Sequence record: MH051916
Length of the DNA stretch: 64,000 nucleotides
Direction: 5' to 3' (one strand)
Source of the DNA: Enterobacteria phage vB_EcoM_IME340
Part shown: piece by piece, positions 6,021-56,260 of the stretch
Numbering within the stretch: position 1 is the stretch's first letter
How the letters are laid out: the number at the start of each line of letters is the position of its first letter
Position numbers and translations under genes: made by a program
Notes under the pieces: generated by a model
The model's database searches: none
The model's input: only the letters and a program-made list of their open reading frames with translations
Told to the model about the DNA's origin: nothing

Positions 6021-6383
6021 ATGAAAGCATATCAAATTCTTGAAGGCACGCATAAAGGTACTATTTATTTTGAAGATGGTATTCAAGCACGAATTATTGT
6101 CTCTAAAACTTTTAAAGATGACTCTTTTGTAGACCCAGAAATTTTCTATGGTTTGCATGCCCGTGAAATTGAAATTGAAACACAACCTACAGTTAAAATT
6201 GAAGGTGGTCAACACCTGAACGTTAACGTTCTGCGTCGTGAAACTCTGGAAGATGCAGTTAAGCATCCGGAAAAATATCCGCAGCTGACCATCCGTGTAT
6301 CCGGATATGCAGTTCGCTTTAACTCTCTGACTCCGGAACAGCAACGCGACGTTATTGCTCGTACCTTTACTGAGAGTTTGTAA
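6021..6383 (+). CDS. autonomous glycyl-radical cofactor (GrcA/YfiD-like spare part protein)
   Basis: C-terminal ~64 aa [59 protein letters not shown] carry the RVSGY glycyl-radical motif and match E. coli GrcA as recalled. Confidence 0.85.
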
Positions 6384-6604
6384 TGGCAAAGATAATTATT
6401 GAAGGTTCTGAAGATGTGCTAAATGCTTTCGCCGAGTGGTTTAGTAATTCAGGCGAACAGCAATTTAATGAAGCGTGGAACATGGGTGATATTAGTGGAA
6501 TTTATCCTACGACAGAAATTTCTGTTCAAGGATATGGAATTCATGAACCTATTCGTTTAGTTGAATATGATTTGGGAACAGGTGAGGAAGTAAAATATGA
6601 TTGA
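6383..6604 (+). CDS. hypothetical protein (73 aa)
   Basis: ORF-track CDS; start overlaps upstream stop. Confidence 0.5.
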   Translation: MAKIIIEGSEDVLNAFAEWFSNSGEQQFNEAWNMGDISGIYPTTEISVQGYGIHEPIRLVEYDLGTGEEVKYD

Positions 6605-6863
6605 AGACATTAAAGGTTATAAGCCACATACTGACGATAAAATCAGTAAAGTGAATGCTATCAAAGACGCTGAAGTTCGTTTAGGACTTATCTTTGATGC
6701 TTTATACGATGAATTCTGGGAAGCACTAGATAATTGTGAAGACTGTGAATTCGCGAAGAATTATGCTGAAAGCCTCGATCAGTTAACTATTGCTAAAACG
6801 AAACTCAAAGAAGCCAGTATGTGGGCTTGTCGTGCTGTGTTCCAACCAGAGGAAAAATATTAA
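6597..6863 (+). CDS. hypothetical protein (88 aa)
   Basis: ORF-track CDS in tight gene array. Confidence 0.5.
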
Positions 6864-7141
6864 TGGCTCAATTAAGCGCAGGGTTTGGTTATGAGTATTA
6901 TACTGCCCCTCGTCGTGTATCTGTTGCTCCTAAGAAAATTCAAAGTCTTGATGACTTCCAGGAAGTAGTTCGTAAAGCTTTCCAGGACTATGCGAGTTAT
7001 CTTAAAGAAGATTCACAGGACTGTCTCGAAGAAGATGAAATTGCTTACTATGAGCAGCGTCTTGAACAGCTCAAAAACCTACATGAGGTTCGTGCAGAAG
7101 TTACAAAGTCTATGAATAAATTGATTAGATTTAAAGAATAA
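6863..7141 (+). CDS. hypothetical protein (92 aa)
   Basis: start set to ATG overlapping upstream stop (TAATG). Confidence 0.5.
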
Positions 7142-7143
7142 CT

Positions 7144-7173
7144 GTTTACTTTTCCTCTTGACTGTGGTATAAT
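7144..7173 (+). promoter_or_regulatory. early promoter upstream of regB
   Basis: GTTTAC 7144-7149, TATAAT 7168-7173. Confidence 0.6.
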
Positions 7174-7200
7174 TTTTCTATCAGTTAAGAGGAGAATAAC

Positions 7201-7662
7201 ATGACTATCAACACAGAAGTTTTTATCCGTCGAAATAAGCTTCGTCGTCACTTTGAGTCGGAGTTTCGTCAAATTAACAATGAGATTCATGAGGCATCAA
7301 AAGCAGCAGGAGTCTCATCGTTTCATCTAAAATATTCTCAACATCTTCTTGATCGTGCAATTCAACGGGAGATTGATGAGACATATGTTTTTGAATTATT
7401 CCACAAAATAAAAGACCATGTTTTAGAAGTTAATGAATTCCTGAGTATGCCTCCGCGTCCTGACATTGATGAGGATTTTATTGATGGAGTTGAATATCGC
7501 CCTGGACGTTTAGAAATTACAGATGGAAATCTTTGGCTTGGATTTACGGTTTGTAAGCCTAATGAGAAGTTCAAAAACCCGTCACTTCAATGCAGGATGG
7601 CAATTATCAACAGTCGTCGTTTACCAGGAAAGGCTTCTAAAGCAGTAATTAAAACTCAATGA
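7201..7662 (+). CDS. regB: RegB sequence-specific endoribonuclease
   Basis: 153 aa; MTINTEVFIRRNKLRRHFESEFRQINNEI... matches T4 RegB as recalled. Confidence 0.93.
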   Translation: MTINTEVFIRRNKLRRHFESEFRQINNEIHEASKAAGVSSFHLKYSQHLLDRAIQREIDETYVFELFHKIKDHVLEVNEFLSMPPRPDIDEDFIDGVEYRPGRLEITDGNLWLGFTVCKPNEKFKNPSLQCRMAIINSRRLPGKASKAVIKTQ

Positions 7663-7669
7663 GGTAAGC

Positions 7670-8215
7670 ATGAGAAAAGCACTACTCGCTGGTCTATTGG
7701 CCATTTCAATGATGGCACATAGCTCCGAGCATACTTTCAGTAATGTCCAACTCGATAACATGCGTTACGCATATCAATTCGGGGAACAATTTTCTAAGGA
7801 TGGAAAATATAAAACACACAAAAATATCCACAAGAGTGGATTAGGTCATATAATGGCTGCTATTTTATGGCAAGAAAGCTCTGCCGGAGTTAATTTAAAA
7901 TCTAAACCAAAGCATCATGCCTATGGAATGTTCCAAAATTATTTGCCGACCATGCGAGCAAGAGTTAAGGAACTTGGTTATAATATGACCGATGCTGAAA
8001 TAAAAAGAATGTTGAATAAACGGTCCAATTCAGCTTCCTGGGCGTACATTGAACTTTCTTATTGGTTAAATATACATAAGGGCGATATAAGAAAGGCAAT
8101 ATCCTCTTATAATTCGGGATGGAATGTTAAAGCAGGTTCTAAATATGCTTCTGAAGTCCTAGAAAAGGCTAACTACCTTAAAAATAATAAACTGTTGGAA
8201 ATAGTAAATGACTAA
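7670..8215 (+). CDS. secreted lytic-transglycosylase-like protein (181 aa)
   Basis: N-terminal signal peptide; SLT-type motifs WQESSAG, GMFQ, YNSG. Confidence 0.6.
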   Translation: MRKALLAGLLAISMMAHSSEHTFSNVQLDNMRYAYQFGEQFSKDGKYKTHKNIHKSGLGHIMAAILWQESSAGVNLKSKPKHHAYGMFQNYLPTMRARVKELGYNMTDAEIKRMLNKRSNSASWAYIELSYWLNIHKGDIRKAISSYNSGWNVKAGSKYASEVLEKANYLKNNKLLEIVND

Positions 8216-8555
8216 AATTTTGGTTTTATGTATAGGATTAATTTCATTTTCTGCTTATGCGTCAGCAGATACATCATATACTGAAATTAGGGAGTATGTG
8301 AACCGCACTGCAGCGGATTATTGTGGGAAAAATAAAGCATGCCAAGCTGAATTTGCGCAGAAATTAATATATGCATATAAAGACGGAGAAAGAGATAAAT
8401 CAAGCAGATACAAAAACGATACATTATTAAAACGATATGCTAAAAAGTGGAATACCCTAGAATGTTCAGTTGCGGAGGAAAAAGATAAAGCCGCTTGTCA
8501 TTCAATGGTTGACCGTTTAGTAGATTCTTATAATCGAGGATTGAGTACTAGATGA
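8208..8555 (+). CDS. small secreted cysteine-containing protein (115 aa)
   Basis: signal peptide MTKILVLCIGLISFSAYASA; 4 Cys. Confidence 0.55.
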   Translation: MTKILVLCIGLISFSAYASADTSYTEIREYVNRTAADYCGKNKACQAEFAQKLIYAYKDGERDKSSRYKNDTLLKRYAKKWNTLECSVAEEKDKAACHSMVDRLVDSYNRGLSTR

Positions 8556-9031
8556 TTGTAAAATATATCAAGGGCGATATTGTCGCCCTCTTTCTTGAAG
8601 GTAATATTATTGCGCACGGGTGTAACTGTTTTCATACAATGGGCAGTGGTGTAGCTGGTCAATTAGCAAGAGCCTATCCCAAAATTTTAGAAATAGATAA
8701 AACCACTACTGAGTACGGTTCTCGTGATAAATTAGGCGATATGTCTATTGTTTTTAAACATAAACCTAATGGGTTTGGCATATGTTATAACTTGTATACG
8801 CAATACGAACCAGGTCCTAATCTTGATTATGGTGCTTTAGTAAACTGCATGATAGAATTAAATCTACAGGCAGAAACCCTTTTGTTTAAACCGGTAATTT
8901 ACATTCCACGCATAGGTTGTGGTATTGCTGGCGGCGATTGGGATAAGGTTTCTAAATTAATCGACATGTTTACTCCTGATATTGATTTAATAGTGGTGGA
9001 TTATGAAAGTACATTACCCACATCCGTTTGA
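8552..9031 (+). CDS. macro-domain-like protein (putative ADP-ribose binding/hydrolase)
   Basis: GDI-(x)-HGCNCFHTMGSGVAGQ glycine loop and IPRIGCGIAGGDW resemble macro-domain signature regions; motif-based only. Confidence 0.55.
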   Translation: MIVKYIKGDIVALFLEGNIIAHGCNCFHTMGSGVAGQLARAYPKILEIDKTTTEYGSRDKLGDMSIVFKHKPNGFGICYNLYTQYEPGPNLDYGALVNCMIELNLQAETLLFKPVIYIPRIGCGIAGGDWDKVSKLIDMFTPDIDLIVVDYESTLPTSV

Positions 9032-9215
9032 TCCTAAAAACAAAGCAGTAATTATTCGTCAATGGGAACGCATTTGCCGTACTAAATGTCCAATTAATAG
9101 TCCACATGATGTAGATAAAGACTACATTGGAACATTCGTTGAATATACATTTATTGATAAGAAAGGTCGTAAACAGCATGTAGAAGAATACTGCGTAAAG
9201 GTGACATGGTTATGA
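9003..9215 (+). CDS. hypothetical protein (70 aa)
   Basis: ORF-track CDS; overlaps upstream gene end. Confidence 0.4.
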   Translation: MKVHYPHPFDPKNKAVIIRQWERICRTKCPINSPHDVDKDYIGTFVEYTFIDKKGRKQHVEEYCVKVTWL

Positions 9216-9418
9216 GCCAAACTAGTATTCTTAAAAATGCCCACTGTGAAAAGTGTAAGTGGCCGGTTGTTTTTGCTTTATGTAACGATGAAATGGCTTG
9301 TGATTTCGATTATTGGTGCTATTGTTCTAATAAAGGATGCATCAATCATAAAGGTGAAGGATTTTATTCGGGATTTTATCCTTATCCAGATTTCGTTAAA
9401 GAAGGTAAACCGAAATGA
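9212..9418 (+). CDS. small Cys-rich protein (68 aa)
   Basis: 9 Cys incl. CEKCKW and CYCSNKGC; start at ATGA overlap. Confidence 0.5.
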   Translation: MSQTSILKNAHCEKCKWPVVFALCNDEMACDFDYWCYCSNKGCINHKGEGFYSGFYPYPDFVKEGKPK

Positions 9419-9588
9419 ATAGTTCTGAGTTACAATATGAAGTGTTACGTGAACTTGATAATTTAATTGAACTCGCTGTTAATAAAGGTTTTGCCATTGG
9501 AATTGGTCAAAAAGATACTGATCATTTAACTGTGGAAATATTTAAGCAAAAGCGAATTATTTTAAAACTTCTGGAAATTAATATATGA
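9415..9588 (+). CDS. hypothetical small protein (57 aa)
   Basis: ATG overlaps upstream stop; fills gap; below ORF-track size cut-off. Confidence 0.4.
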   Translation: MNSSELQYEVLRELDNLIELAVNKGFAIGIGQKDTDHLTVEIFKQKRIILKLLEINI

Positions 9589-9770
9589 GCCTAAGCAAAG
9601 AACAAAAAGACAAACTCTTTTCTCTTATCCACGAAATTATGGATAAAAATAGTGAATTGGAAAAAGTTTGTAATGAATGCGGTCCTTTTAGCGCAAATGA
9701 ATATGAAGAACTTTCCAAAGAATTTGATAATAAAGAACAAGAACTCATTGATTATATAAATTCCTTATGA
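9585..9770 (+). CDS. small helical protein, member of a ~60-aa paralogue family
   Basis: MSLSKEQKDKLFSLI...YINSL; shares N-terminal xEQxxKL and C-terminal Y-L/I-E-x-L pattern with 5 other ORFs. Confidence 0.55.
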   Translation: MSLSKEQKDKLFSLIHEIMDKNSELEKVCNECGPFSANEYEELSKEFDNKEQELIDYINSL

Positions 9771-9955
9771 TTACTCGCGAACAAAAGAACGAAATATTAT
9801 TTTTAGTTGGTGAAATTATTAGTTTAGAAAAGGATTTGTCTTTTGAAATATCTTCTGAATATGGAGATGCCGAAACATATTACGAATTAGTAAAATCTAT
9901 CGATAAAGCTGAAAATGATTTAGAAACATATTTAGAAAATTTAACTAAGGACTAA
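9767..9955 (+). CDS. small helical protein, paralogue family member
   Basis: MITREQKNEILFLV...TYLENL. Confidence 0.55.
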   Translation: MITREQKNEILFLVGEIISLEKDLSFEISSEYGDAETYYELVKSIDKAENDLETYLENLTKD

Positions 9956-9956
9956 G

Positions 9957-10538
9957 ATGGCGAGTTTAATTTTTACTTATGCAGCAATGAATGCTGGAAA
10001 ATCTGCTTCTCTTTTGACTGCTGCGCATAATTATAAAGAACGTGGAATGAGTGTATTAGTTCTTAAGCCTGCTATTGATACTCGCGATTCTGTCTGTGAA
10101 GTCGTTTCTCGCATTGGAATTAAACAGGAAGCGAATATTATTACAGATGATATGGATATTTTCGAGTTCTATAAATGGGCTGAAGCACAAAAAGATATTC
10201 ATTGCGTATTTGTAGATGAAGCCCAGTTTTTAAAAACTGAACAAGTGCATCAATTGAGTCGAATTGTTGATACATATAATGTTCCTGTTATGGCTTATGG
10301 ATTAAGGACTGATTTCGCTGGAAAATTGTTTGAAGGTTCTAAAGAACTTTTAGCGATTGCAGATAAACTTATTGAACTAAAGGCAGTTTGTCATTGCGGC
10401 AAAAAAGCGATTATGACAGCTCGATTGATGGAAGATGGAACACCAGTTAAAGAAGGTAATCAAATCTGTATTGGTGATGAAATTTATGTTTCTTTGTGTA
10501 GAAAACACTGGAACGAATTAACTAAAAAGCTCGGTTAG
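9957..10538 (+). CDS. tk: thymidine kinase
   Basis: 193 aa; MASLIFTYAAMNAGKSASLL (P-loop) ... matches T4 Tk as recalled. Confidence 0.93.
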   Translation: MASLIFTYAAMNAGKSASLLTAAHNYKERGMSVLVLKPAIDTRDSVCEVVSRIGIKQEANIITDDMDIFEFYKWAEAQKDIHCVFVDEAQFLKTEQVHQLSRIVDTYNVPVMAYGLRTDFAGKLFEGSKELLAIADKLIELKAVCHCGKKAIMTARLMEDGTPVKEGNQICIGDEIYVSLCRKHWNELTKKLG

Positions 10539-10580
10539 TGCAAAAGTTATAAATAGGTTTATCTAACTAAAGGGGTATAT

Positions 10581-10793
10581 ATGCTACAATTAACTGAAAA
10601 GCAACTTCGCAATCTTACTGTGCTTCAATTAGATGAAATTCGTAGGGAAGTTGGAAATATCATTTCAGCTTTGCGTCGAGAAGTATCACTCAACCAATCT
10701 CCGGCAGACTATACTAGATTGCGAAATTTTGAAAAATACCTTGATAAAGTTAAGGCCGTGCATCGGCATAAAGTAAATACAGGACAAAAATGA
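10581..10793 (+). CDS. hypothetical protein (70 aa), rI.-1 position
   Basis: ORF-track CDS immediately upstream of rI. Confidence 0.5.
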
Positions 10794-10805
10794 TAGGAGG
10801 CCTTT

Positions 10806-11099
10806 ATGGCCTTAAAAGCAACGGCACTTTTTGCCACGCTAGGATTGTCATTTGTTTTATCTCCATCGATTGAAGCGAATGTCGATCCTCATTTTGATAA
10901 ATTTATGGAATCTGGTATTAGGCACGTTTATACACTTTTTGAAAATAAAAGCGTAGAATCGTCTGAACAATTCTATAGTTTTATGAGAACGACCTATAAA
11001 AATGACCCGTGCTCTTCTGATTTTGAATGTATAGAACGAGGCGCGGAGATGGCACAATCATACGCTAGAATTATGAACATTAAATTGGAGACTGAATGA
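10806..11099 (+). CDS. rI: lysis inhibition regulator RI
   Basis: 97 aa; MALKATALFATLGLSFVLSPSIEANVDPHFDKFMESGIRHVY... matches T4 RI as recalled. Confidence 0.9.
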   Translation: MALKATALFATLGLSFVLSPSIEANVDPHFDKFMESGIRHVYTLFENKSVESSEQFYSFMRTTYKNDPCSSDFECIERGAEMAQSYARIMNIKLETE

Positions 11100-11482
11100 A
11101 ATTCAGCGACTTTTCACAAAGTGGAAAACCTTCAAAGGCAGATGAATACTTAGGTTTATTAATGGCTGCACAAGCTTATTTTCATTCTGCACATTTTGAA
11201 ACTAAAAGTTATGCTAGACACAAAGCATACGATTTTATTTTCTCCGAGTTGCCAGATTTAATTGATAAATTTGGTGAGCAATATTTGGGGTATTCTGGTA
11301 GAAAATACACACCTTCAATTCCAGATGCCAGTAAACTTCCTACCGACACAATTAAAATGATTGATCGCATACTAGACCAATCTAACAGCATTTATAAAGA
11401 AATGCCTCCAGCCATCCAAAGCACGATAGATGATATTACTGGAATGTTTTACCAGAGTAAGTATCTTCTTTCCCTCGAATAA
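11096..11482 (+). CDS. hypothetical protein (128 aa), rI.1 position
   Basis: ATGA overlap with rI stop; followed by terminator. Confidence 0.55.
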
Positions 11483-11486
11483 CATT

Positions 11487-11510
11487 AGTCTCCTTCGGGA
11501 GACTTTTTTC
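11487..11510 (+). terminator. intrinsic terminator
   Basis: AGTCTCC-TTCG-GGAGACT hairpin followed by TTTTTTC. Confidence 0.7.
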
Positions 11511-11519
11511 ATTTTACCG

Positions 11520-11549
11520 GTTTACTTTCCGTTTGAGCTGTGGTACTAT
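11520..11549 (+). promoter_or_regulatory. early promoter (member of repeated promoter family)
   Basis: GTTTAC 11520-11525, TACTAT 11544-11549, followed by conserved ACAACTATC leader. Confidence 0.55.
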
Positions 11550-11577
11550 ACAACTATCGGATAAAGAGGAGAACATC

Positions 11578-11766
11578 ATGAAAATTGAAGCACTCAATCA
11601 AGAAGGAAATATCTACGTCATCATTAACGGTGATTTTTTCGTCGACATGGATGAAGTTACCAGTGAAGAACTTGAAGAACTTCTTAAGAAACGTTATGAT
11701 ATGTGTGATGAAGCTGCAACTCATATGGCGTGTGCAATATTCTCTCTTTCATATGTGGTGGAATAA
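11578..11766 (+). CDS. hypothetical small acidic protein (62 aa)
   Basis: ATG after GAGGAG SD. Confidence 0.5.
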
Positions 11767-52980: not shown

Positions 52981-53141
52981 ACAGAGATATGACGCTAGAA
53001 GAGGCCAAGGCTAAAGCAAATGAAGCATTGGATTTGCTTCTTAAAATTGGCAGTAAAATGATGGAAGAGAATGAAAAATATATCCAGGAAAACAAAATTC
53101 CTGACGGCCCATTAGTAGGCAAAAGGAAATCACATGATTGA
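52977..53141 (+). CDS. hypothetical small protein (54 aa)
   Basis: ATGA coupling to upstream ORF. Confidence 0.35.
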
Positions 53142-53604
53142 AGTAGCAAAACATTATTCAATAGAATTTATGTCTAAAGAAGGTAAATCAGTAAATACGC
53201 TTGATAAAAAGTGCTCATTAATTATTCCTTTAGCAGAAAATCCGGATCTTTTAATTAAAGATATAAAAGAAAGAAAATACCCAGAAAATGTTATCCTAAT
53301 TATAAAGCATACTGAAGATATTTTGCAGAATACTGATTCACCATTTTCTTCTTCTGAAGCTTTAACTATTAAAGGATATAAAAGAGCTCATGAATATGGT
53401 CTTTTTGACCTGTTTGAAGATGATAACGTTAAATTAGCGAGTCAACCTTCTAAAAGTAAAACATTCATTATTGAAGATATTAAAGACATAAATGCATTTG
53501 TTAAGATGGTCTGGGCTCATTTTGATGTTGGACTACGCTGGAGAATGTCCGAAGAAGAAAGAAAAATTATTGAAGCTAATCGTTATTTTGGTTTTTATCG
53601 CTAG
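53134..53604 (+). CDS. hypothetical protein (156 aa)
   Basis: ORF-track CDS. Confidence 0.5.
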
Positions 53605-53612
53605 GAATTAAT

Positions 53613-53795
53613 ATGGATTTATTTGAGATGTTAGAAGATAATCATTCTACGAATATCCAGAATGATTCTAGTGATTATAAGAAAGAGTACCGTATAGTAT
53701 TACAGAATTATGGAATTGAAGCCCCAGATGCTCTTCTAGAAGAACTAGCTTCATACCATCTTGACCCTCCGCCCTGGGCTCCCTGGGCAAAATAA
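53613..53795 (+). CDS. hypothetical acidic protein (60 aa)
   Basis: ORF-track CDS. Confidence 0.45.
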   Translation: MDLFEMLEDNHSTNIQNDSSDYKKEYRIVLQNYGIEAPDALLEELASYHLDPPPWAPWAK

Positions 53796-53806
53796 TTCAA
53801 AAAGTT

Positions 53807-53836
53807 GTTTACTTTCCTTCCTAACAATGATATGAT
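53807..53836 (+). promoter_or_regulatory. early promoter
   Basis: GTTTAC 53807-53812, TATGAT 53831-53836. Confidence 0.5.
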
Positions 53837-53862
53837 AGCTTCTGAAGTATATGGAGGCTATC

Positions 53863-54486
53863 ATGATTATTAATCTTGCAGATGTTGAACAGTTATCTAT
53901 AAAAGCTGAAAGCGTTGATTTTCAACATGATATGTATAAAAAGGTCTGTGAAAAATTTACTGACTTTGAACAATCAGTTCTTTGGCAATGTATGGAAGCC
54001 AAAAAGAATGAAGCTCTTCATCGGCAGTTGAATAAAATCATTAAAAAGCATTTAACTGAATCACCTTATCAGTTATATCGTGGTATATCAAAATCGACAA
54101 AAGAACTCATTAAAGATTTACAAGTCGGAGAAGTGTTTTCAACGAACAGAGTAGATTCATTTACTACTAGTTTGCACACAGCGTGTTCTTTTTCTTATGC
54201 TGAATATTTCACTGAAATAATATTTCGCTTAAAAACTGATAAAGCTTTTAATTATTCTGACCATATCAGCGATATTATACTTTCTTCTCCTAATACTGAG
54301 TTTAAGTATACATATGAAGATACTGATGGATTAGATTCAGAACGTACTGATAACTTAATGATGATTGTACGTGAACAAGAATGGATGATTCCAATTGGAA
54401 AGTATAAAATAACTTCTATTTCAAAAGAAAAATTACACGATTCATTTGGAACATTTAAAGTGTATGATATTGAGGTAGTTGAATGA
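53863..54486 (+). CDS. modB: Mod-family ADP-ribosyltransferase (207 aa; ModB by size)
   Basis: R-S-E ART triad elements: YRG, STS-like FTTS, EQEWMIP; paralogue of next gene. Confidence 0.7.
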   Translation: MIINLADVEQLSIKAESVDFQHDMYKKVCEKFTDFEQSVLWQCMEAKKNEALHRQLNKIIKKHLTESPYQLYRGISKSTKELIKDLQVGEVFSTNRVDSFTTSLHTACSFSYAEYFTEIIFRLKTDKAFNYSDHISDIILSSPNTEFKYTYEDTDGLDSERTDNLMMIVREQEWMIPIGKYKITSISKEKLHDSFGTFKVYDIEVVE

Positions 54487-55085
54487 AATATTCAGCAATG
54501 CAATTAAAAGATTTTAAAATCAAATCAATGGATGCATCGGTGCGTGCTTCTATTCGTGAAGAATTACTTTCTGAAGGATTTAATTTATCTGAAATTGAAC
54601 TTTTAATTCATTGTATTACTAATAAGCCAGACGACCACTCTTGGTTAAATGAAATAATCAAATCTCGTTTGGTTCCAAACGATAAACCTCTTTGGAGAGG
54701 TGTTCCAGTTGAGACTAAGCAAGTGTTAAATCAAGGAATTGATATTATTACATTTGATAAAGTAGTATCAGCTTCATATGATAAAAATATAGCTCTACAT
54801 TTTGCTTCTGGATTAGAATACAATACACAAGTTATTTTTGAATTCAAAGCTCCTATGGTATTTAATTTTCAGGAGTATGCTATAAAAGCTCTACGTTGTA
54901 AAGAATATAGTCCAAGTTTTAAGTTTCCAGATAGCCATCGCTATCGTAATATGGAATTAGTTTCAGATGAACAAGAAGTAATGATACCAGCTGGAAGTGT
55001 ATTTAGAATTGCGGATAGATACGAGTATAAAAAGTATTCAACATACACTATCTATACTCTTGACTTTGAAGGATTTAATCTATAA
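54483..55085 (+). CDS. modA: Mod-family ADP-ribosyltransferase (200 aa; ModA by size)
   Basis: LWRG, SASYD, EQEVMIP motifs; ATGA overlap with previous gene. Confidence 0.7.
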   Translation: MKYSAMQLKDFKIKSMDASVRASIREELLSEGFNLSEIELLIHCITNKPDDHSWLNEIIKSRLVPNDKPLWRGVPVETKQVLNQGIDIITFDKVVSASYDKNIALHFASGLEYNTQVIFEFKAPMVFNFQEYAIKALRCKEYSPSFKFPDSHRYRNMELVSDEQEVMIPAGSVFRIADRYEYKKYSTYTIYTLDFEGFNL

Positions 55086-55141
55086 TGGAAGGACTTAGAT
55101 TCATTATACCATGAAAGTTTTAAAGCATTTTTCATAAAGTT

Positions 55142-55171
55142 GTTTACAAGCTGAAGTAAAAATGTTATAGT
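55142..55171 (+). promoter_or_regulatory. early promoter
   Basis: GTTTAC 55142-55147, TATAGT 55166-55171. Confidence 0.6.
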
Positions 55172-55200
55172 ATAAGTAGTTAACCGTCCGTGAGAAAAAT

Positions 55201-55947
55201 ATGAAACTGTCTAAAAATCAAATTCGTAAAATTACACGTCGTCTAGAGCATACTCAGGCATCTGCTAAAAGACGTTCTAAAGATTTTAACTTAGACTTCA
55301 ATTACATTAAGAACATTTTAGATCAGAAAGTTTGCGCTTACTCGGGAGAACCTTTTGATAATCATATTGAAGGAGAGAAATTATCATTAGAACGTTTTGA
55401 TAATAACGTTGGATACATTAAAGGGAATGTTATTGCAGTAAAGAAAAAGTATAATACATTTCGTTCTGATTATACTTTAGAAGAGTTGATTGAAAAGCGT
55501 GATTTATTTGCTTTGCGAATTGGTCGTTCATCTGCGAAAAAAGTTCATAAACTAAATTTAGATGAAAAGAAATGGGCTAAAATCAAAAAGACTTATAATC
55601 AAATTAAAGCTATACAGAAAAAACGCGAAAACCGAATTGAGCACATTTCTCAGCTTTCTAAATCAAAACAAACCTCTGACGTTAAGCTAACGATTATAGC
55701 ACTTAAAGCTCGTATTGATGGTTCTCGTATAGCAGAAGGCGCTGAAGTTGTTAAACTAAACGTTCTTCTTAAAGGCTCGGATTGGAAAACTGTGAAAAAA
55801 TTGTCAGAAGCAGAAATGCAATATGATATGTGTGATAAAATTATTCAAGGTGTAGAGCGGTATCAAAACTTGTCTTTTATTGATAAACTTAAACTGAAAA
55901 GAGGATACCCGCTAAATTGTTCAATTTTTAAACTTATCCGAGGATAA
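55201..55947 (+). CDS. srd: Srd-like protein (248 aa), assigned by position and size
   Basis: basic protein between mod genes and dda as in T4. Confidence 0.55.
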   Translation: MKLSKNQIRKITRRLEHTQASAKRRSKDFNLDFNYIKNILDQKVCAYSGEPFDNHIEGEKLSLERFDNNVGYIKGNVIAVKKKYNTFRSDYTLEELIEKRDLFALRIGRSSAKKVHKLNLDEKKWAKIKKTYNQIKAIQKKRENRIEHISQLSKSKQTSDVKLTIIALKARIDGSRIAEGAEVVKLNVLLKGSDWKTVKKLSEAEMQYDMCDKIIQGVERYQNLSFIDKLKLKRGYPLNCSIFKLIRG

Positions 55948-55948
55948 T

Positions 55949-56260
55949 ATGTTTTATGTATATGCGATAGTGTATAGAGATAAAGATGGATTTGCGGTGC
56001 CTGTTCCGCTTGATGAACATCGTCCTGCTGTATTTTTTGAAAGGGAGATTGCTGATAAAGTATTTACTACTCTTAAAGAGCAGTATCAACTAGCTTTAGG
56101 TATGGGAATTCCGAGATTAGTTGAGACTCCACGCAAGTTTTGGTTTAATAAAATAGAAGTTAAACACGTTAAGCCTGATGTAGACACACAAAGATTATAT
56201 CGGCGAATTTTAGATACTGGGCGTATTGTTAGTATACCAATTGCAGGGAATTTACGATGA
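55949..56260 (+). CDS. hypothetical protein (103 aa), dda.1 position
   Basis: ORF-track CDS. Confidence 0.5.
   Translation: MFYVYAIVYRDKDGFAVPVPLDEHRPAVFFEREIADKVFTTLKEQYQLALGMGIPRLVETPRKFWFNKIEVKHVKPDVDTQRLYRRILDTGRIVSIPIAGNLR

Follow-up and report, generated by a model that had tools for sequence, protein, structure and literature searches.

The locus considered here raises the question of what a small, stand-alone macrodomain protein does in a phage that also encodes ADP-ribosyltransferases of its own. A preliminary description of the DNA had called the open reading frame at 8552-9031 macro-domain-like and had offered two functions for its product, namely editing of the phage's own ADP-ribosylation of host proteins or countering of host toxins of the DarT type. 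The reading preferred here, to which we give a probability of roughly 70%, is that this is the tk.4/adfM gene of Tequatrovirus and that it encodes a stand-alone, orphan antitoxin-like macrodomain ADP-ribosylglycohydrolase, which reverses the marks made by DarT2. The finding as such is already known: the A1pp match of tk.4 orthologues has been in print since 2006 (PMC1524935), and a preprint of 2025 described what the T4 orthologue does.

Gene content and layout of the locus

The window, by which is meant the whole stretch of 64,000 nucleotides that was analysed (Enterobacteria phage vB_EcoM_IME340, record MH051916), belongs to Tequatrovirus. Over the segment 7600-10600 it shares 99.0% identity with Escherichia phage vB_EcoM_G4507, and a single alignment covers at least 80% of that segment in 317 phage records. 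The macrodomain gene and its two immediate neighbours are as follows.

8552-9031, plus strand: tk.4/adfM-type gene for a single-domain macrodomain protein of 159 residues (open reading frame list, Pfam Macro, phrog_335, AlphaFold2, Foldseek)
8208-8555, plus strand: vs (valyl-tRNA synthetase modifier), the upstream neighbour, 99.1% identical to T4 Vs
9003-9215, plus strand: tk.3 (DUF7202), the downstream neighbour, 94.3% identical to T4 Tk.3 (Pfam PF23832)

The reading frame begins with ATG, its coordinates include the stop codon, and its start overlaps the stop of vs in the form ATGA. The gene order in the window, regB - vs.1 - vs - macrodomain gene - tk.3 ... tk - rI.1 - rI - rI.-1, is that of phage T4, and the array from regB to rI.-1 is tightly packed, with overlapping start and stop codons; the macrodomain gene is probably expressed from this array. 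A promoter scan of 6300-11700 returned 19 sites where shuffles predicted 20.4, and since this overall count does not exceed chance the scan is uninformative. The only signals from the promoter and terminator scan that agree with the annotation are a sigma-70-like site that precedes regB (7145-7173) and a terminator-like hairpin that follows rI.-1 (11487-11504).

The slot occupied by the gene is that of tk.4 in T4, which carries the GenBank/RefSeq label "phosphatase; contains A1pp phosphatase motif". The same gene is annotated as "macro domain protein" in the record of G4507, and as "phosphatase", "Poa1p-like family protein" or "RNase III inhibitor" in others. The value of the present analysis is mainly one of annotation, in that the name should be adfM/tk.4-like macrodomain and not "phosphatase".

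Assignment to the macrodomain superfamily

The sequence of the product assigns it to the macro superfamily as a macrodomain, and binding of ADP-ribose is predicted from its Gly-rich loops. Its match to the Pfam family PF01661 (Macro) spans positions 2-117 of the 118 in the profile and scores 33.1 bits, above the gathering cut-off of 22 (E=6.2e-8), and phrog_335, the PHROG that also holds T4 Tk.4, matches with E=1.6e-71. A single-sequence search of the PDB sequences found Bacteroides BT1257 (2e-10), yeast Poa1p (1.8e-9), SCO6735 of Streptomyces coelicolor (9e-8) and the macrodomain of Mycobacterium tuberculosis (Mtb) DarG (1e-5), with human TARG1 also among the matches. A family profile built from 119 homologues and searched against the same sequences gave BT1257 at 8e-19, TARG1 at 6e-16, SCO6735 at 5e-15, Mtb DarG at 2e-12 and Taq DarG at 1.5e-10.

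Structure prediction leads to the same place. The AlphaFold2 model, with the family alignment as input, has a pLDDT of 94.0 and a pTM of 0.89, consists of alternating strands and helices, and is disordered at its last five residues only. When the model was compared with the PDB by Foldseek, the first matches were TARG1 (the best, E=2e-10), Poa1p, BT1257 and the Taq and Mtb DarG macrodomains, with TM scores of about 0.7-0.8; the top 50 matches are all macrodomains or macrodomain-scaffold designs, each with a probability of 1.00. ALC1 was reached through the BT1257 query and stands at Foldseek rank 29. By its nearest sequence and structure relatives the protein belongs to the TARG1/ALC1-like class of macrodomains, tested members of which take Glu/Asp esters and T/U-linked nucleic-acid ADP-ribose as substrates (PMC9411070; PMC10789625; PMC13036486). 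The preliminary call of a macro domain is thus borne out by the Pfam match above cut-off, by the confidence of the model and by the macrodomains that head the Foldseek matches; a non-macro fold had been named there as the outcome that would speak against the call, and the prediction gave a macro fold.

Predicted active site and comparison with known macrodomains

Three short stretches of the gene cover the motifs on which the predicted chemistry depends.

8615-8662, plus strand: H-x-C-N motif and first Gly-rich ADP-ribose/phosphate-binding loop HGCNCFHTMGSGVAGQ, residues 22-37 (family conservation, SCO6735 alignment)
8798-8803, plus strand: codons T83-Q84, with Gln where TARG1 (K84) and DarG (K80) have the catalytic Lys (family and profile alignments)
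8903-8941, plus strand: second Gly-rich (phosphate-binding) loop IPRIGCGIAGGDW, residues 118-130 (family conservation)

In the first of these, H22, G23, C24, N25, M30 and G31 are at least 90% conserved across the 119 family members and G33 and A35 are invariant; the stretch HGCNCFHTMGSGVAGQ aligns with H24-V25-C26-N27 of SCO6735, where mutagenesis of N27 and H24 has been reported (PMC9411070). In the last, P119 and W130 are invariant, I121, G122, G124, A126, G127 and G128 are conserved to at least 90%, and the loop matches the PRIGCGLAGGxW of BT1257 and SCO6735. Both motifs, HGCNCFHTMGSGVAGQ and IPRIGCGIAGGDW, had been quoted in the preliminary description and are indeed found in the product. 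Q84 is invariant among the same homologues and T83 is at least 90% conserved.

The profile alignment places Q84 opposite K84 of TARG1, and A126 opposite the catalytic D125 of that enzyme. The SCO6735 sequence was recovered through the BT1257 query, the Taq and Mtb DarG sequences came from PDB alignments, and an explicit alignment of eight sequences was made. In its catalytic column SCO6735 and BT1257 have Q, as do T4 Tk.4 and the window protein, whereas the Mtb and Taq DarG sequences, TARG1 and PhiKZ gp104 have K. As the Gln column is shared with SCO6735 and DarG has Lys, the T4-like AdfM would be mechanistically nearer to SCO6735 than to DarG. The conserved Q84 and N25, together with the GCG(L/I)AGG loop, thus assign a putative Gln-type, SCO6735-like site to T4-like AdfM. 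That a site of this type parts T4-like AdfM from DarG and from PhiKZ AdfM seems to be unreported in the literature consulted, and the distinction between Gln-type and Lys-type AdfM bears on the catalytic mechanism by which thymine-linked ADP-ribose is reversed.

SCO6735 (PDB 5e3b) and BT1257 (2afc/2fg1) share with the phage protein the TARG1/ALC1-like fold, the H-x-C-N motif, the Gln (Q85 in SCO6735 as against Q84) and the PRIGCG(L/I)AGGxW loop. SCO6735, the only enzyme with this Gln to have been characterised, cleaves dT-ADPr; its Q85A variant is inactive, N27 is important and positions Q85, and G128 is likewise of functional importance; the protein protects against DarT, and a dead mutant too inhibits DarT, by binding it (PMC9411070). 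However, the identity of these proteins to the window protein is only 26-27%, and they carry a mobile-loop insertion of six residues, described in SCO6735 as bearing the DNA-binding Lys89 and Lys94 (PMC9411070), in place of which the window protein and T4 Tk.4 have a gap of six columns in the eight-sequence alignment. The residue before the Gln also differs, being T83 in the window protein, as in the xTK of TARG1 and DarG, but G in SCO6735. Finally, SCO6735 is encoded by a chromosomal, DNA-damage-induced gene, whereas the window protein is phage-encoded.

The macrodomain of DarG2 (Taq, 5m31; Mtb, 5m3i; T. africanus, 7omu) is of the same macro class, is matched by Foldseek with E of about 1e-8 and TM of about 0.73, and presumably acts on the same substrate, DarT2-modified thymidine. 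Unlike the phage protein it has a catalytic Lys80 in an FPTK motif, a C-terminal DarT-binding domain and an adjacent darT, all of which are absent from the window locus. Identity with DarG was accordingly rejected; the matches to DarG models in NCBIfam and PADLOC are specific but weak, and far under cut-off, that of NCBIfam DarG reaching 27.8 bits where 250 are called for. TARG1/OARD1 is the best fold match and cleaves both T- and U-linked ADP-ribose (PMC13036486), but where it has the catalytic dyad Lys84/Asp125 the window protein has Q84 and A126, and identity with TARG1 was rejected for this reason.

Probable countering of DarT2

The window protein falls, by its position between vs and tk.3, its full-length homology and the common PHROG, into the orthologous group of T4 Tk.4/AdfM. 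The two proteins are 58% identical over 155 residues (E=4e-70), are of similar length (159 residues in the window, 155 in T4), consist of a single macro domain, and share the HGCNCFHTMGSGVAGQ loop and the catalytic segment NLYTQ..PGPN. They differ in 42% of residues and in the C-terminal tail, that of the window protein being longer by four residues and reaching 29 nt into tk.3.

It is this orthology that connects the locus with DarT. When T4 lacks both adfA and adfN it is still resistant to DarTG2, from which a further anti-DarTG2 factor was predicted (PMC11825919). In a preprint of 20 November 2025, a T4 transposon library grown on a DarTG2 host gave tk.4 as the sole significant hit, and a clean tk.4 knockout was DarTG2-sensitive; its authors called the gene adfM (anti-DarT factor Macrodomain) and inferred that T4 AdfM removes ADP-ribose from DNA enzymatically (bioRxiv 10.1101/2025.11.20.689424). 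As quoted from the same work, the phenotype of tk.4 in T4 was found with DarTG2 only, among several defence systems and two growth media (bioRxiv 10.1101/2025.11.20.689424). Since T4 requires tk.4 against DarTG2 and the window gene is its orthologue, the part of the preliminary description that had the protein counter DarT-type toxins is supported. By analogy, the 58%-identical window allele would have the same target as its T4 counterpart, and ADP-ribose would be removed from the DNA enzymatically.

The course of events would be as follows. Once host DarTG2 is triggered, DarT2 places ADP-ribose on the thymidines of TNTC motifs in single-stranded DNA, and replication of the phage DNA is thereby blocked. 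The phage macrodomain most likely grips the ADP-ribose by means of its two Gly-rich loops and cleaves the bond between thymine and ribose, which would restore the DNA. The chemistry is probably of the SCO6735 type, in which N25 would position Q84 and a water molecule would attack, and not that of DarG and TARG1 with their Lys. As with SCO6735, the protein may in addition bind DarT2 stoichiometrically and so inhibit it.

That erasure is a workable strategy for phages is shown by an unrelated lineage. PhiKZ gp104, a macrodomain independently named AdfM, strips DarT2 marks off a TNTC oligonucleotide in vitro (PMC13309987). It resembles the window protein in being a stand-alone phage macrodomain that counters DarTG2, but it is Lys-type (FPTKDNW), DarG-like and imported into the phage nucleus. 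It was rejected as an orthologue, given a BLASTP similarity that is local only (23 bits) and its Lys-type site; as gp104 and T4 Tk.4 are not orthologous, the name AdfM covers two macro subfamilies. Other anti-DarT factors work in other ways. AdfB of ICP1 binds DarT directly and is termed an antitoxin mimic, with no description as a macrodomain in the part of the report that treats it (PMC11481870), while AdfN (gp30.3) of T4 removes DarT1 marks from guanosine (PMC11825919). AdfN is, like the window protein, an orphan antitoxin-like enzyme of the same phage group, but it has the unrelated NADAR fold and is specific for guanine rather than thymine. Its gene, 30.3 in T4, presumably lies outside the window, to judge from T4 gene numbering. 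DarT-type DNA ADP-ribosylation is a widespread anti-phage defence, and stand-alone erasers such as AdfN and AdfM show that antitoxin-like enzymes have been co-opted by phages.

A divergent allele of tk.4

The proteins encoded around the macrodomain gene (RegB, Vs.1, Vs, Tk.3, Tk.2, Tk.1, Tk, RI.1, RI and RI.-1) are 94-100% identical to those of T4, against the 58% of the macrodomain protein itself, and the change is abrupt in the DNA.

8570-9045, plus strand: divergent allele cassette relative to T4 (drop in DNA identity)

Up to about position 8570 the DNA is 97-100% identical to that of T4; the figure falls to 37-87% across 8570-9045 and is back at 97% from 9050. This is a sharply bounded, cassette-like allele replacement that is limited to the tk.4 reading frame, and such a cassette on a near-identical backbone seems to be unreported in the literature consulted. 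Within the protein, the two alleles agree to about 85% in residues 1-48, the N-terminal, ADP-ribose-binding part, and the NLYTQ..PGPN segment is likewise conserved, whereas divergence is strong in residues 49-79 and in the C-terminal helix. In the second Gly-rich loop the window allele has the family consensus, GCGIAGG, where T4 has GAGIGKG, the T4 Tk.4 stretch reading PRIGAGIGKGNW. Given this difference and the 42% of residues changed, specificity could differ from that of the T4 allele.

The window-type allele, at 90% identity or more, is found in 317 phage records and appears intact and widespread; the T4-type allele is found in 224 at the same threshold, with a further 159 at 80-90%. The two deeply diverged alleles on near-identical Tequatrovirus backbones are a natural experiment on eraser specificity, and the cassette and the Gln-type site are useful leads, although neither would surprise specialists.

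One could therefore ask whether the divergent allele performs the same chemistry against some other ADP-ribosylating threat, be it a different DarT2 lineage, ADP-ribosylation of uracil or RNA bases, or another nucleic-acid ART toxin, with the swap of cassettes an arms-race exchange. The sharp bounds of the cassette in its 94-100% identical backbone and the abundance of both allele classes fit this idea. It would also be in keeping with the cleavage of U-ADPr on RNA by TARG1-like enzymes, SCO6735 included (PMC13036486), and with the allele-specific activity of other anti-DarT factors, AdfA and AdfB (PMC11481870; PMC11825919). On the other hand, the active-site residues, like the N-terminal half at about 85%, are conserved between the alleles. 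Moreover, alleles are often replaced in mosaic fashion among T-even genomes, also where function does not change. We consider a different target to be unlikely. The fuller proposal, that the allele is functionally distinct, neutralises nucleic-acid ADP-ribosylating toxins in another spectrum than the T4 allele and is kept by an arms race, and that a Gln/water mechanism arose in phages independently of the Lys-type PhiKZ AdfM, is likewise doubtful; if it were true, T-even phages would carry interchangeable "eraser" alleles, akin to anti-restriction cassettes.

Possible small-molecule substrates

The N-terminal half of the window protein resembles yeast Poa1p, an ADP-ribose-1''-phosphate phosphatase, so that substrates of low molecular weight come into consideration as well. 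The protein would then hydrolyse ADP-ribose-1''-phosphate, O-acetyl-ADP-ribose or immune signals derived from ADPR, for example those of Thoeris. Poa1p ranks among the top matches in both sequence (E=1.8e-9) and fold (TM 0.80), the T4 gene carries its label of phosphatase with an A1pp motif, and a preference for soluble ADPr derivatives has been proposed for many viral macro domains by Aravind and colleagues (PMC9503650). In the Poa1p structures the catalytic residues that were mutated are H23, S30 and F152. The sequence match to Poa1p is, however, mainly to the N-terminal half, being strong over residues 3-79 and resuming weakly at 116-148. RNA repair in T4 is not known to produce Appr>p. The window protein has an invariant Q84, as in the DNA-ADPr hydrolase SCO6735. 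Nor would small-molecule hydrolysis account for the phenotype of the T4 orthologue under DarTG2 only, in the conditions quoted, and we regard it as distinctly improbable. A phage macrodomain acting on Thoeris signals was also sought, and the one candidate paper concerns the host ThsA macro domain and not a phage protein.

The mod genes

Removal of DarT2 marks, the reading preferred here, leaves the ADP-ribosyltransferases of the phage itself to be considered.

53851-55085, plus strand: modB-like and modA-like ADP-ribosyltransferase genes (phrog_832, near-identical annotated genes)

The presence of two Mod-type genes had been noted in the preliminary description and is confirmed: the reading frames 53851-54486 and 54483-55085 match phrog_832, "RNA polymerase ADP-ribosylase" (7e-42 and 4e-33), and near-identical genes elsewhere bear the labels modA and modB. 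It is very improbable that the macrodomain protein erases the arginine ADP-ribosylation, or RNAylation, of host proteins by Alt, ModA and ModB, even though it shares a genome with modB and modA and an arginine-specific macrodomain class does exist, exemplified by Legionella MavL as cited in PMC13036486, because the transferases concerned, Alt, ModA and ModB, are specific for arginine (PMC8120803) and the window protein is TARG1/ALC1-like and not MavL-like. The enzymes named in review as erasers of Arg-ADPr are ARH1 and DraG (PMC10789625).

The distribution of the genes points the same way. The macrodomain family occurs in 2772 phage records, including phages of Pseudomonas, Vibrio, Acinetobacter and Aeromonas, whereas ModA homologues detectable by tblastn, a search that very divergent ARTs may escape, occur in 926, and none of these four groups is among the ten commonest organism names of the latter. 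No co-localisation of tk.4 with the mod genes was found, the distance in the window being about 45 kb. Editing of the phage's own Mod and Alt marks, the other function that had been offered for the protein, is therefore not upheld. As to the mod genes themselves, the start at 53863 that had been assigned to the first of them is the second in-frame ATG (Met5) of the reading frame that begins at 53851.

The boundaries of tk.4

Codons 7-13 of the macrodomain gene tk.4 (window 8571-8589) contain a GC-rich hairpin of 8 bp with the sequence AGGGCGA-TATTG-TCGCCCT, which is followed by a T-rich run and has a predicted dG of approximately -12.6 kcal/mol (ViennaRNA). The T4 copy of this element is identical, and its position coincides with the exact left edge of the divergent tk.4 cassette, the segment in which this gene departs from its T4 counterpart. 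The hairpin may act as an RNA element or mark a recombination boundary, or its resemblance to a terminator may be fortuitous.

The 3' end of the gene also differs between the two phages. In T4, tk.4 and tk.3 share an ATGA stop/start overlap, whereas in the window this overlap is out of frame, and tk.4 therefore runs 29 nt into tk.3 (9003-9031). The resulting tail is 4 residues longer than that of T4 Tk.4, and residues 155-159 have a pLDDT below 50 in the predicted structure.

Neighboring genes

Upstream of tk.4 are found two genes that are nearly identical to those of T4:

7670-8215, vs.1, two genes upstream of tk.4; 99.4% identical to T4 Vs.1
8208-8555, vs, adjoining tk.4; 99.1% identical to T4 Vs

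The product of vs.1 matches the SLT lytic transglycosylase domain (PF01464) weakly, its 23.4 bits lying just above the cut-off of 21.3, and its N-terminal ~20 residues are hydrophobic and, judged by eye, form a putative signal peptide. In T4, vs showed the strongest depletion of any gene in minimal medium (HIDEN-SEQ preprint, bioRxiv 10.1101/2025.11.20.689424).

Downstream, the tk.3-tk.2 interval (9206-9588) holds two small ORFs without a counterpart in T4:

9206-9418, small ORF; Pfam PF23895, 'Phage zinc binding domain'
9415-9588, small ORF; phrog_3452, function unknown

As the alignment with T4 is interrupted at 9216 and picks up again at 9584, the pair looks like a two-gene module that was gained or lost by insertion or deletion.

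In the region 53134-56260, three further ORFs surround the ADP-ribosyltransferase genes modB and modA:

53134-53604, T4 MRH-like protein; PF24070
55201-55947, 248-aa ORF for which the Pfam search matched nothing
55949-56260, Y01A-family protein; PF25693

The name AdfM

The name AdfM has been given to two non-orthologous phage macrodomains. T4 Tk.4 (bioRxiv 2025) is of the Gln type, named for the residue at the catalytic column, whereas PhiKZ gp104 (Cell Rep 2026) is of the Lys type and DarG-like. This double use could lead to confusion in annotation.
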